Origin: Escherichia coli
Lineage (GTDB): Bacteria; Pseudomonadota; Gammaproteobacteria; Enterobacterales; Enterobacteriaceae
Assembly (NCBI RefSeq): GCF_003334255.1
Contig: NZ_QOWU01000055.1
Length of the DNA: 38,946 bases
Strand: one strand, 5' to 3'
Positions 5,410-38,946 of the stretch are shown in pieces; position 1 is the stretch's first letter, and each line of letters opens with the position of its first letter. Below the pieces are notes generated by a model. The model saw only the letters and a list, made by a program, of their open reading frames with translations. It was not told where the DNA came from and ran no database searches. The translations under genes were made by a program, and so were the position numbers.

Positions 5410-5617
<208 letters not shown>

Positions 5618-15180: not shown

Positions 15181-15217
15181 CAGGATAGCGAAGAAGACTG
15201 ATGACAAACGGAAAACA

Positions 15218-15315
15218 GCCTGATGCGCTACGCTTATCAGGCCTACATTTTCTCCGCAATATATTGAATTTGCGCGGTTTGTAGGCCGGATAAGGCGTTC
15301 ACGCCGCATCCGGCA
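15218..15315. repeat. BIME (two inverted REP elements) downstream of uvrB
   Basis: GCCTGATGCGCTACGCTTATCAGGCCTAC (15218-15246) and GTAGGCCGGATAAGGCGTTCACGCCGCATCCGGCA (15281-15315) with a conserved linker. Confidence 0.85.
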
Positions 15316-15371
15316 TAAACAACGCGCACTTTGTCTTCAATAGGAAGCCGGAATTTTCCTTCGGATTTCCG

Positions 15372-16529: not shown

Positions 16530-16676
16530 CACGCTAGTATCGGCATAACCACTAAACACTCTAGCCTCTGCACCTGGGTCAACTGATACGGTGCTTTGGC
16601 CGTGACAATGCTCGTAAAGATTGCCACCAGGGCGAAGGAAGAAATGACTTCGCCTCCCGTATCTGGAAAGGTGTAC
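16530..16676 (+). ncRNA. Moco riboswitch (cis-regulatory RNA) in the moaA 5' leader
   Basis: Leader ends with GAAGGAAGAAATGACTTCGCCTCCCG just before the moaA start, as expected for the molybdenum-cofactor RNA motif. The 5' boundary is approximate and no structure was computed. Confidence 0.55.
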
Positions 16677-17666
16677 ATGGCTTCACAACTGACTGATGCA
16701 TTTGCGCGTAAGTTTTACTACTTGCGCCTGTCGATTACCGATGTGTGTAACTTTCGTTGCACCTACTGCCTGCCGGATGGCTACAAACCGAGCGGCGTCA
16801 CCAATAAAGGCTTTCTTACCGTCGATGAAATTCGCCGGGTTACGCGCGCCTTCGCCAGTCTGGGCACCGAAAAAGTGCGCCTGACAGGAGGAGAGCCGTC
16901 TTTACGCCGCGACTTTACCGATATCATCGCCGCTGTGCGGGAAAACGACGCTATCCGCCAGATTGCGGTCACAACCAATGGTTACCGTCTGGAACGCGAT
17001 GTGGCGAGCTGGCGCGATGCGGGACTTACTGGCATTAACGTCAGTGTCGACAGTCTGGACGCCCGCCAGTTTCACGCTATTACCGGGCAGGATAAATTCA
17101 ACCAGGTCATGGCAGGGATTGATGCTGCATTTGAGGCCGGTTTTGAGAAGGTCAAAGTCAATACCGTGCTGATGCGTGATGTTAATCATCACCAGCTCGA
17201 CACCTTTCTGAACTGGATCCAGCATCGCCCTATCCAGCTGCGTTTCATCGAACTGATGGAAACGGGCGAGGGCAGCGAGCTCTTCCGTAAGCATCACATC
17301 TCTGGTCAGGTTCTGCGTGACGAGCTACTGCGTCGCGGCTGGATCCACCAATTACGTCAACGCAGCGACGGTCCCGCGCAAGTCTTTTGCCATCCAGATT
17401 ACGCCGGAGAGATTGGCCTTATCATGCCGTATGAAAAAGACTTCTGCGCCACTTGCAACCGCCTGCGCGTTTCCTCCATTGGTAAACTCCATCTCTGCCT
17501 GTTTGGTGAAGGCGGCGTTAACCTGCGCGATCTGCTGGAAGACGATACCCAGCAACAGGCGCTGGAAGCGCGTATTTCAGCGGCGCTGCGGGAGAAGAAA
17601 CAGACCCATTTCCTGCATCAAAACAACACCGGTATTACGCAAAACTTATCGTACATTGGCGGCTAA
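16677..17666 (+). CDS. moaA: GTP 3',8-cyclase (molybdenum cofactor biosynthesis protein A, radical SAM)
   Basis: ORF track frame 16596..17666; ATG at 16677 ([31 protein letters not shown]) giving 329 aa. Confidence 0.95.
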
Positions 17667-30504: not shown

Positions 30505-31869
30505 ATGTCTTTCGATTCTTTGGGTTTAAGCCCTGATATCCTGCGCGCCGTTGCCGAGCAGGGTTACCGTGAACCCACCCCTATTCAGCAGCAGGCGATC
30601 CCTGCGGTGCTGGAAGGCCGCGACCTGATGGCTAGCGCCCAGACCGGCACCGGCAAAACAGCGGGCTTTACGCTGCCGCTGTTGCAACACCTGATCACTC
30701 GCCAGCCGCACGCCAAAGGGCGTCGTCCGGTACGTGCGCTCATTCTTACCCCGACCCGTGAACTGGCGGCGCAGATTGGCGAAAACGTCCGTGATTACAG
30801 CAAATACCTGAACATTCGTTCGCTGGTGGTGTTTGGTGGTGTGAGTATTAACCTGCAGATGATGAAACTGCGTGGCGGCGTTGATGTGCTGGTGGCAACC
30901 CCGGGACGTTTGCTGGACCTGGAACATCAGAATGCAGTGAAGCTGGATCAGGTTGAAATCCTCGTCCTCGATGAAGCTGACCGCATGCTCGACATGGGCT
31001 TTATCCACGATATCCGTCGCGTGTTAACAAAACTACCTGCGAAGCGCCAGAACCTGTTATTCTCCGCGACCTTCTCTGACGATATTAAAGCCCTGGCGGA
31101 AAAACTGTTGCACAACCCGCTGGAAATCGAAGTGGCACGCCGCAATACCGCGTCTGATCAGGTGACCCAGCACGTTCACTTTGTCGATAAGAAACGCAAA
31201 CGCGAATTGCTGTCGCACATGATTGGGAAAGGGAACTGGCAGCAGGTGCTGGTGTTTACCCGTACCAAACACGGCGCTAACCATCTGGCTGAACAGCTCA
31301 ATAAAGATGGCATCCGTAGTGCGGCGATCCACGGCAATAAATCGCAAGGTGCGCGTACTCGTGCGCTGGCTGATTTTAAATCGGGCGATATTCGTGTACT
31401 GGTGGCAACTGACATCGCTGCGCGCGGCCTGGATATTGAAGAGCTGCCGCACGTCGTCAACTATGAACTGCCAAACGTACCTGAAGATTATGTCCACCGT
31501 ATCGGGCGTACCGGTCGTGCGGCTGCTACCGGTGAAGCGTTGTCGCTGGTGTGTGTTGATGAACACAAACTGCTGCGTGATATCGAAAAACTGCTGAAAA
31601 AAGAGATCCCGCGCATTGCGATTCCGGGCTATGAGCCGGACCCGTCAATCAAAGCCGAACCGATCCAGAACGGTCGCCAGCAACGTGGCGGCGGCGGTCG
31701 TGGGCAAGGTGGTGGTCGCGGTCAACAGCAACCACGCCGTGGGGAAGGTGGCGCAAAATCTGCAAGCGCGAAACCTGCAGAAAAACCGTCTCGCCGCCTC
31801 GGCGATGCCAAACCGGCAGGCGAACAACAACGTCGCCGCCGTCCGCGTAAACCTGCCGCTGCGCAGTAA
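30505..31869 (+). CDS. rhlE: ATP-dependent DEAD-box RNA helicase
   Basis: 454-aa ORF with Q-motif, Walker A (AQTGTGKT), DEAD box (LVLDEADRM) and an Arg/Gly-rich C-terminal tail. Confidence 0.95.
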
Positions 31870-31875
31870 TCTTTT

Positions 31876-31896
31876 ATGCCGGGCTATGCCCGGCAT
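31876..31896 (+). other. Stem-loop (ATGCCGGGC/GCCCGGCAT, 3-nt loop) directly after the rhlE stop
   Basis: Perfect 9-bp inverted repeat; no T-run follows, so probably a 3' stabilising hairpin rather than a classical intrinsic terminator. Confidence 0.45.
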
Positions 31897-31921
31897 CAGG
31901 CTGATGAACAAACGCAAAACT

Positions 31922-32020
<99 letters not shown>

Positions 32021-32100
32021 TTTCACAACAAGCACTTGTCAGCAATTTGAGAACACGGGAAAAAATTTATCTGTTTTACCGCCCATAAGCCACCGAGACG

Positions 32101-32702: not shown

Positions 32703-34853
32703 ATGGCATTAACCGCCGCGCTTAAAGCGCAAATTGCCGCCTGGTATAAGGCGCTTCAGGAACAGATCCCCGACTTTATTCCCCGTGCGCCGCAGCGGCA
32801 GATGATTGCGGACGTCGCCAAAACGCTGGCCGGAGAAGAAGGGCGACATCTGGCGATTGAAGCCCCCACCGGCGTTGGGAAAACGCTCTCTTATTTGATT
32901 CCCGGCATCGCCATTGCCCGCGAAGAGCAAAAAACGCTGGTGGTGAGTACCGCCAACGTGGCATTGCAGGATCAGATTTACAGCAAAGATTTACCGCTGC
33001 TGAAAAAGATCATTCCCGATCTTAAATTCACTGCCGCTTTTGGGCGTGGGCGCTACGTTTGTCCGCGTAATCTGACGGCGCTCGCCAGTACTGAACCCAC
33101 GCAACAGGATCTGCTGGCGTTTCTTGACGACGAACTGACGCCGAACAATCAGGAAGAGCAAAAACGTTGTGCGAAGCTGAAGGGCGATCTCGATACTTAT
33201 AAATGGGATGGTCTGCGCGATCATACTGATATCGCTATAGATGACGATCTCTGGCGTCGTTTAAGTACCGACAAAGCCAGCTGCCTCAACCGCAATTGTT
33301 ACTACTATCGTGAATGCCCGTTTTTTGTCGCTCGTCGGGAGATTCAGGAAGCGGAAGTGGTGGTGGCAAACCATGCGCTGGTGATGGCGGCGATGGAAAG
33401 CGAAGCGGTATTGCCTGACCCGAAAAATTTACTGCTGGTGCTGGACGAAGGCCATCACCTGCCGGATGTGGCGCGGGATGCGCTTGAGATGAGCGCCGAA
33501 ATCACCGCGCCGTGGTATCGGCTACAGCTGGACTTGTTCACGAAACTGGTCGCTACCTGCATGGAGCAGTTTCGCCCGAAGACCATCCCACCGCTGGCGA
33601 TCCCTGAACGTTTGAATGCGCATTGTGAAGAGTTGTATGAGCTTATCGCCTCGTTAAACAACATTCTCAATCTCTACATGCCTGCCGGGCAGGAGGCAGA
33701 GCACCGTTTTGCGATGGGCGAACTGCCAGATGAAGTGCTGGAGATCTGCCAGCGGCTGGCAAAACTCACCGAGATGCTGCGTGGCCTGGCGGAGTTATTT
33801 CTTAACGATTTAAGTGAGAAAACCGGCAGCCATGACATTGTACGTCTGCATCGGTTGATTTTGCAGATGAACCGCGCGTTGGGGATGTTCGAGGCGCAAA
33901 GCAAACTCTGGCGGCTGGCTTCGCTGGCGCAATCTTCCGGTGCACCGGTGACCAAATGGGCGACGCGGGAAGAGCGCGAAGGGCAGCTACACCTCTGGTT
34001 TCACTGCGTGGGAATACGTGTCAGCGATCAGCTGGAAAGGCTGCTGTGGCGCAGTATTCCGCACATTATTGTCACCTCCGCAACCTTGCGTTCGCTGAAC
34101 AGTTTTTCGCGTTTGCAGGAGATGAGTGGTCTGAAAGAGAAAGCGGGCGACCGTTTTGTGGCGCTGGATTCCCCCTTTAACCACTGCGAACAGGGCAAAA
34201 TTGTTATTCCCCGGATGCGCGTTGAGCCTTCCATCGACAACGAAGAGCAGCATATTGCCGAAATGGCGGCCTTTTTCCGTAAGCAGGTGGAGAGCAAAAA
34301 ACATCTCGGTATGTTGGTACTGTTTGCCAGCGGACGGGCGATGCAGCGCTTTCTCGACTATGTGACGGATTTACGTCTGATGTTGCTGGTTCAGGGCGAT
34401 CAGCCGCGTTACCGTTTAGTTGAACTGCACCGCAAACGCGTCGCCAACGGTGAGCGCAGCGTGCTGGTGGGCTTACAGTCATTTGCCGAAGGGCTTGATT
34501 TGAAAGGTGATCTGCTCAGCCAGGTGCATATCCACAAAATCGCTTTTCCGCCCATCGACAGCCCGGTGGTGATCACCGAAGGGGAATGGCTGAAAAGCCT
34601 CAACCGCTATCCGTTTGAGGTGCAAAGCCTGCCGAGCGCCTCGTTTAACCTGATTCAGCAGGTTGGGCGACTGATTCGAAGCCACGGTTGCTGGGGCGAA
34701 GTGGTTATCTACGACAAACGCTTGCTGACCAAAAATTATGGCAAGCGACTACTGGATGCATTACCGGTATTTCCGATAGAGCAACCGGAAGTCCCTGAAG
34801 GTATAGTTAAAAAGAAAGAAAAAACGAAATCCCCACGCCGTCGGCGGCGTTAA
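32703..34853 (+). CDS. dinG: ATP-dependent DNA helicase DinG (Fe-S, XPD-like)
   Basis: ORF track frame 32568..34853; start MALTAALKAQIAAWYKAL giving 716 aa; Walker A (APTGVGKT) and DEGH box. Confidence 0.95.
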   Translation: MALTAALKAQIAAWYKALQEQIPDFIPRAPQRQMIADVAKTLAGEEGRHLAIEAPTGVGKTLSYLIPGIAIAREEQKTLVVSTANVALQDQIYSKDLPLLKKIIPDLKFTAAFGRGRYVCPRNLTALASTEPTQQDLLAFLDDELTPNNQEEQKRCAKLKGDLDTYKWDGLRDHTDIAIDDDLWRRLSTDKASCLNRNCYYYRECPFFVARREIQEAEVVVANHALVMAAMESEAVLPDPKNLLLVLDEGHHLPDVARDALEMSAEITAPWYRLQLDLFTKLVATCMEQFRPKTIPPLAIPERLNAHCEELYELIASLNNILNLYMPAGQEAEHRFAMGELPDEVLEICQRLAKLTEMLRGLAELFLNDLSEKTGSHDIVRLHRLILQMNRALGMFEAQSKLWRLASLAQSSGAPVTKWATREEREGQLHLWFHCVGIRVSDQLERLLWRSIPHIIVTSATLRSLNSFSRLQEMSGLKEKAGDRFVALDSPFNHCEQGKIVIPRMRVEPSIDNEEQHIAEMAAFFRKQVESKKHLGMLVLFASGRAMQRFLDYVTDLRLMLLVQGDQPRYRLVELHRKRVANGERSVLVGLQSFAEGLDLKGDLLSQVHIHKIAFPPIDSPVVITEGEWLKSLNRYPFEVQSLPSASFNLIQQVGRLIRSHGCWGEVVIYDKRLLTKNYGKRLLDALPVFPIEQPEVPEGIVKKKEKTKSPRRRRR

Positions 34854-37165: not shown

Positions 37166-37294
37166 ACTTGTGCTGGACGTAGCGTAAACGCCTGATCCGT
37201 CCAACGGTTCGGATTTTGTAGGCCTGATAAGACGCGGTAGCGTCGCATCAGGCATCTGTTGCCGGATGCGGCGTAAACGCCTTATCCGTCCTAC
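37166..37294. repeat. REP/BIME cluster downstream of ybiJ
   Basis: GTAGGCCTGATAAGACGCGGTAGCGTCGCATCAGGC (37218-37253) and GCCGGATGCGGCGTAAACGCCTTATCCGTCCTAC (37261-37294), plus a partial REP-like segment upstream. Confidence 0.8.
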
Positions 37295-38840: not shown

Positions 38841-38883
38841 ACAATTTCTCCAAAAAGTGGGGCCTGCGCCCATAAGCGCTAAC

Positions 38884-38946
38884 TTAAGGGTTGAACCATC
38901 TGAAGAATGCGACGCCTCGGTGCCTCGTTAAGACGATGCCTCGCGT
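38884..38946 (-). CDS. 3' end of an upstream minus-strand gene (by synteny possibly the catecholate siderophore receptor fiu); partial
   Basis: Open minus-strand frame entering from the window edge and stopping at 38884-38886, 43 bp upstream of ybiX. Too short to identify from sequence; the assignment rests on synteny only. Confidence 0.25.

Follow-up and report, generated by a model that had tools for sequence, protein, structure and literature searches.

An arginine/glycine-rich, basic C-terminal tail on Escherichia coli RhlE: predicted disorder, lineage-linked length alleles, and a probable role in RNA binding

The DEAD-box helicase gene rhlE lies in the window, by which we mean the whole 38,946-nucleotide stretch of DNA analyzed here. 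The window is K-12-like chromosome, with 14 single-nucleotide polymorphisms relative to DH1 over 38,794 bases, and it has foreign ends: positions 1-77 are the end of an IS1 element that interrupts ybhD, and the 75 bases at 38872-38946, which lie between ybiX and fiu, belong to the end of an IS186/IS421-family element. The window thus resembles a short-read contig broken off at repeats. Rfam places a molybdenum cofactor riboswitch at 16545-16689, upstream of moaA, and two naRNA4 matches at 5492-5562 and 37221-37291. The rhlE gene is flanked by cecR on one side and ybiA/dinG on the other, as in K-12, and the coordinates of its features are collected in Table 1. Just 3' of the stop codon there is a perfect 9-bp hairpin (31876-31896), with no T-run after it. 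Next to it is a REP/BIME-like repeat (31898-32040), 86% identical to 15195-15335, within which Rfam places an ES036 match on the minus strand (31943-31985); a second ES036 match lies at 15239-15280.

Table 1. Features of rhlE and of its C-terminal tail (positions in the window)
Feature	Coordinates	Strand	Evidence
rhlE coding sequence, 454 aa + stop	30505..31869	+	ORF; rhlE annotation in E. coli genomes; full-length NCBIfam RhlE equivalog
Helicase core: Pfam DEAD (aa 25-196) + Helicase_C (aa 232-339)	30577..31521	+	Pfam; solved homologues; AlphaFold2
Basic tail, predicted disordered, aa 390-454 (65 codons)	31672..31866	+	Composition; entropy; pLDDT; no Pfam/PDB match
Tri-RG motif, aa 394-406, inside RG/Q block aa 390-411	31684..31722	+	Regular-expression test
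Indel hotspot: GGC GGC GGC GGT (31687-31698) + GGT GGT GGT (31708-31716)	31687..31716	+	E. coli allele alignments
Two AKPA...RR modules	31768..31851	+	Direct repeat D2; module counts; example tails
Terminal Arg cluster RRRRPRKP, aa 443-450	31831..31854	+	Conservation in Enterobacteriaceae

The identity of the gene is clear from several lines of evidence. Its product scores 976.6 bits against NF007882, the NCBIfam RhlE equivalog profile (cutoff, 743), with residues 1-454 aligned to positions 1-456 of the 456 in the profile, and rhlE is annotated in 5,424 of 5,426 complete E. coli genomes. Pfam recognizes both halves of the helicase core (PF00270, E = 6.6e-49; PF00271, E = 4e-30) and no domain after residue 339, while solved homologues align as far as about residue 375. 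The window copy carries one change in the core, P117L, caused by a C-to-T substitution at 30854 (codon 30853-30855) in the early part of a helix (residues 115-123) of the AlphaFold2 model. Position 117 is proline in all 120 enterobacterial homologues and leucine in none of 257 wider homologues. A 61-nt probe spanning the site matched 1,704 genomes, all of which lack the T, and the best full-gene matches among 5,424 genomes are 99.9% identical. Either a private mutation or a sequencing error could explain this substitution.

The first-pass annotation had described the end of RhlE as an Arg/Gly-rich, highly basic, low-complexity tail, and this description was borne out: the coordinates were exact (residue 390 begins at 31672, and 65 codons are followed by the stop codon at 31867-31869), and the quoted protein sequence was correct. 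Relative to the core, the tail is enriched in arginine (20% vs 8%), glycine (23% vs 6.7%), and glutamine (14% vs 4.9%), and it is nearly devoid of hydrophobic residues (1.5%, a single residue, vs 32%). It has no aromatic residues, a net charge of +14, and a pI of 12.0. The 30-residue Shannon entropy of RhlE reaches its minimum of 2.13 bits at residues 387-416, against 3.58 +/- 0.15 (minimum, 3.20) in the core and a minimum of 2.75 in the other 35 intact proteins of the window (10,075 windows of 30 residues). The tail is thus the lowest-complexity segment among the 36 intact proteins, and no other 65-residue stretch in the window has as high a net positive charge. An AlphaFold2 model built from an 81-sequence alignment has a mean pLDDT of 86.6 and high confidence to about residue 390; beyond that point, block means of pLDDT are just 44-52, and the model lacks secondary structure. 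When the tail by itself was searched against solved structures, nothing matched at an E value of 10 or below. Together, the absence of a predicted fold and the scarcity of hydrophobic residues predict that the tail is intrinsically disordered. The adjoining DNA helicase gene dinG (32703-34853) likewise encodes a protein with a short basic C-terminal tail, KKKEKTKSPRRRRR.

The tail had also been likened to eukaryotic RGG tails, and here the resemblance is partial. We applied the RGG/RG motif definitions of Thandapani, as quoted in PMC9957100, by regular expression. The tri-RG definition, RG(X0-4)RG(X0-4)RG, is matched at residues 394-406, whereas the di-RGG and tri-RGG definitions (RGG repeats 0-4 residues apart) are matched nowhere in the RhlE protein. 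A tri-RG motif arose by chance in 0.7% of whole-protein shuffles and in 8% of tail-only shuffles; the motif therefore largely follows from tail composition. The features shared with eukaryotic RGG/RG domains such as those of FUS and DDX4 (the latter classed as tri-RG) are RG repeats separated by glycines and a disordered region beside an RNA-handling domain. The likeness to such domains therefore holds for a tail that is tri-RG, basic, of low complexity, and predicted to be disordered, but not for an RGG box or for aromatic content: the RhlE tail has a single RGG triplet and no aromatic residues, and its RG part is just 13-22 residues long. Methylation of arginines by PRMT enzymes is a eukaryotic feature.

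At the DNA level, the tail is GC rich, as first described (66.7%, vs 55.1% in the rest of the gene). At codon positions 1, 2, and 3, GC content is 0.88/0.71/0.42 for the tail and 0.67/0.38/0.60 for the core; because the excess sits in positions 1 and 2, with position 3 below that of the core, GC richness results from the abundance of Gly, Arg, Ala, and Pro codons. The claim that this DNA is repetitive was upheld only weakly. A repeat search found three 24-nt units with 71% identity, but Tandem Repeats Finder detected no tandem array in the RG part of the tail, and no codon run is longer than GGC x3 or GGT x3. Two open reading frames that overlap the tail, 31616-31927 on the plus strand and 31645-31917 on the minus strand, were rejected as genes, since variable sites follow the third codon position of rhlE. 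A terminator-like site on the minus strand (31805-31791) was within chance expectation, with 4 such sites found and 2.7 expected.

A comparison of strains, which had been proposed along with the idea that the tail might vary in length by slippage, showed that tail length is not invariant in E. coli. We used evenly spaced samples of 30 and 60 records for allele frequencies, because short queries also pick up partial matches, which distort identity-band counts. The 454-aa K-12 form, our reference, makes up about 70% of sampled records. A 453-aa form with one Gly codon fewer in the first of the two Gly-codon runs accounts for about 23%, its sampled rows having 93.8-95.7% identity. A 455-aa form with an extra Gly codon in the second run accounts for 5-7%, and all of its sampled rows are O157 (O157:H7). 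The fourth form, of 448 aa, arose through an 18-nt deletion (31696-31713) between two GGTCG direct repeats, and its junction has an uninterrupted full-length match in a single genome, that of strain OkiPb01695, among the matches listed. Every tail indel observed among E. coli genomes preserves the frame and falls at the two Gly-codon runs. In the sampled rows, the length alleles follow gene divergence and lineage; for this reason, the sequences suggest that the indels are old and fixed rather than products of rapid slippage. Hence, the predicted length variation exists, with four lengths at Gly-codon runs, but it is small, in frame, and linked to lineage, with no sign of rapid slippage. The extreme version of that idea, a contingency locus in which slippage frequently switches between forms of RhlE, would account for indels within Gly-codon runs or between short direct repeats. 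It is hardly credible for runs of just three units outside any detectable tandem array, for indels that all keep the frame and track lineage (with every sampled 455-aa row being O157), and for a 448-aa allele seen in one genome.

Sequence variation tells a similar story of a tail that is free to change within limits. Across eight E. coli alleles, amino acid variation affects 2 of 389 codons in the core and 6 of 65 codons in the tail, along with 7 indel columns, so that amino acid change per codon is about 18 times higher in the tail. Variable sites in the tail are distributed 4/4/24 over the three codon positions, and the tail is therefore translated and constrained, albeit much less tightly than the core. 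The high rate of amino acid change, the presence of indels, and the lack of family-wide conservation of the tail sequence could all be taken to mean that the tail is functionally neutral filler, made and kept by replication slippage. We consider this very improbable: third codon positions dominate the variation, the RG block and the terminal motif are conserved, an extension is kept in all representatives examined, and homologous helicases need their tails to function (PMC11260450).

The conserved parts become visible across the Enterobacteriaceae. Comparison of 120 enterobacterial homologues divides the tail into three: an RG/Q block, a middle part that varies, and an end segment with RRRRPRKP. 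Identity to the window sequence is 82% in the RG/Q block, which ranges from 17 to 49 residues in length, 38% in the middle, and 73% at residues 442-454. The tails include KP-containing modules of the AKPAG...RR kind (pattern KP[ASTGP][GESD] or KP[PRS]R), of which related genera have 0 to 4 per tail. RRRRPRKP itself is present in 87 of the 120 enterobacterial homologues and in none of 150 wider representatives. Two homologues (P0019 and P0055) have long, aberrant tails, with an apparent frameshift or read-through into the downstream repeat; that of P0055 resembles the alternative-frame ORF 31616-31927 (+) of the window. In the wider RhlE-like family, all 139 alignable cluster representatives have a C-terminal extension of at least 20 aa, 97% of these extensions are net basic, and 44% contain three or more RG dipeptides, but the family shares no conserved tail sequence. 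RhlE tails have been described as clade specific and fast evolving (PMC8266600).

The nearest known counterparts of this tail are those of Pseudomonas aeruginosa RhlE1 and RhlE2. Without its tail, either protein binds RNA less tightly and loses all or most of its unwinding activity, but its ATPase activity is unaffected (PMC11260450); for RhlE1, the Kd for RNA rises from 2.2 to 84 nM, and unwinding is abolished with unchanged ATPase activity (PMC11260450). Both full-length proteins form droplets with RNA that are dissolved by 1 M NaCl, and the isolated tails of RhlE1 and RhlE2 are enough for droplet formation (PMC11260450). The extensions of these proteins resemble that of E. coli RhlE in that they belong to the same helicase family, follow the RecA2 domain, and are basic and disordered, and the RhlE1 tail is short, as is the E. 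coli tail. Their sequences differ, however: the RhlE1 tail is Lys rich and the RhlE2 tail is long and Gly/Glu rich, whereas the E. coli tail is rich in Arg, Gly, and Gln and has a terminal Arg cluster. No homology links the E. coli tail to those of P. aeruginosa, as the RhlE1 model covers only residues 1-382 and scores under its cutoff. For E. coli RhlE itself, we found no experimental test of a tail deletion in the literature searched. Secondary citations report that the protein has a disordered region, phase-separates in vitro, and forms foci in vivo. Other proteins that are reported, along with RhlE, to form foci or condensates have extensions of a different size and sequence (PMC1616957).

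We propose that the tail is a disordered, polycationic, auxiliary RNA-binding extension of the DEAD-box core, a reading to which we assign a probability of about 0.75. It builds on the observed composition, the disorder predicted for the tail, the purifying selection seen in the rhlE reading frame, and the basic tails found throughout the family; by analogy with the homologues and the published work, the E. coli tail most likely binds RNA, stimulates unwinding, and contributes to condensate formation. In the proposed mechanism, electrostatic contacts of the Arg/Gly block and the terminal Arg cluster with the RNA backbone would be independent of both sequence and ATP. The tail would thereby hold the helicase core on its substrate, raising RNA affinity and making unwinding productive, and its multivalency would allow the formation of condensates that depend on RNA and are sensitive to salt. 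The E. coli enzyme does, however, unwind blunt duplexes (PMC1616957), so it may depend less on such a tether.

The conserved terminal motif could instead indicate that the main task of the tail is docking to RNase E, poly(A) polymerase, the ribosome, or some other protein partner, with RRRRPRKP serving as a short linear motif. The better conservation of this segment than of the middle of the tail and its restriction to the Enterobacteriaceae are in keeping with docking, as are the binding of E. coli RhlE to RNase E and poly(A) polymerase in vitro (PMC1616957) and the requirement of the RhlE2 tail for the interaction of RhlE2 with RNase E (PMC8266600). The contact between RhlE2 and RNase E is RNA dependent, however (PMC8266600), so a basic tail could act through RNA alone; moreover, no partner site has been mapped to the E. 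coli RhlE tail, and there is no simpler RNA-binding element than an Arg cluster. We therefore regard docking as an unlikely main function; a docking role of the terminal Arg motif is nevertheless possible and would be compatible with RNA tethering. A bolder combination, in which RRRRPRKP is a short linear motif dedicated to a specific partner and the lineage-fixed Gly-run alleles (448, 453, 454, and 455 aa) tune RNA-dependent condensation differently among E. coli phylogroups, strikes us as quite doubtful.

With auxiliary RNA binding as the preferred reading, the RhlE tail is a real but ordinary feature, since such tails have already been described for RhlE helicases. RhlE tails are an established case of disordered regions that evolve fast and determine how tightly bacterial helicases bind RNA, how they unwind it, and how they condense. 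To this, our analysis adds a catalogue of tail-length alleles in E. coli, the three-part architecture of the tail in Enterobacteriaceae, and a conserved terminal Arg motif. With the natural length alleles and the Arg motif, variants are already at hand for testing the E. coli tail directly.
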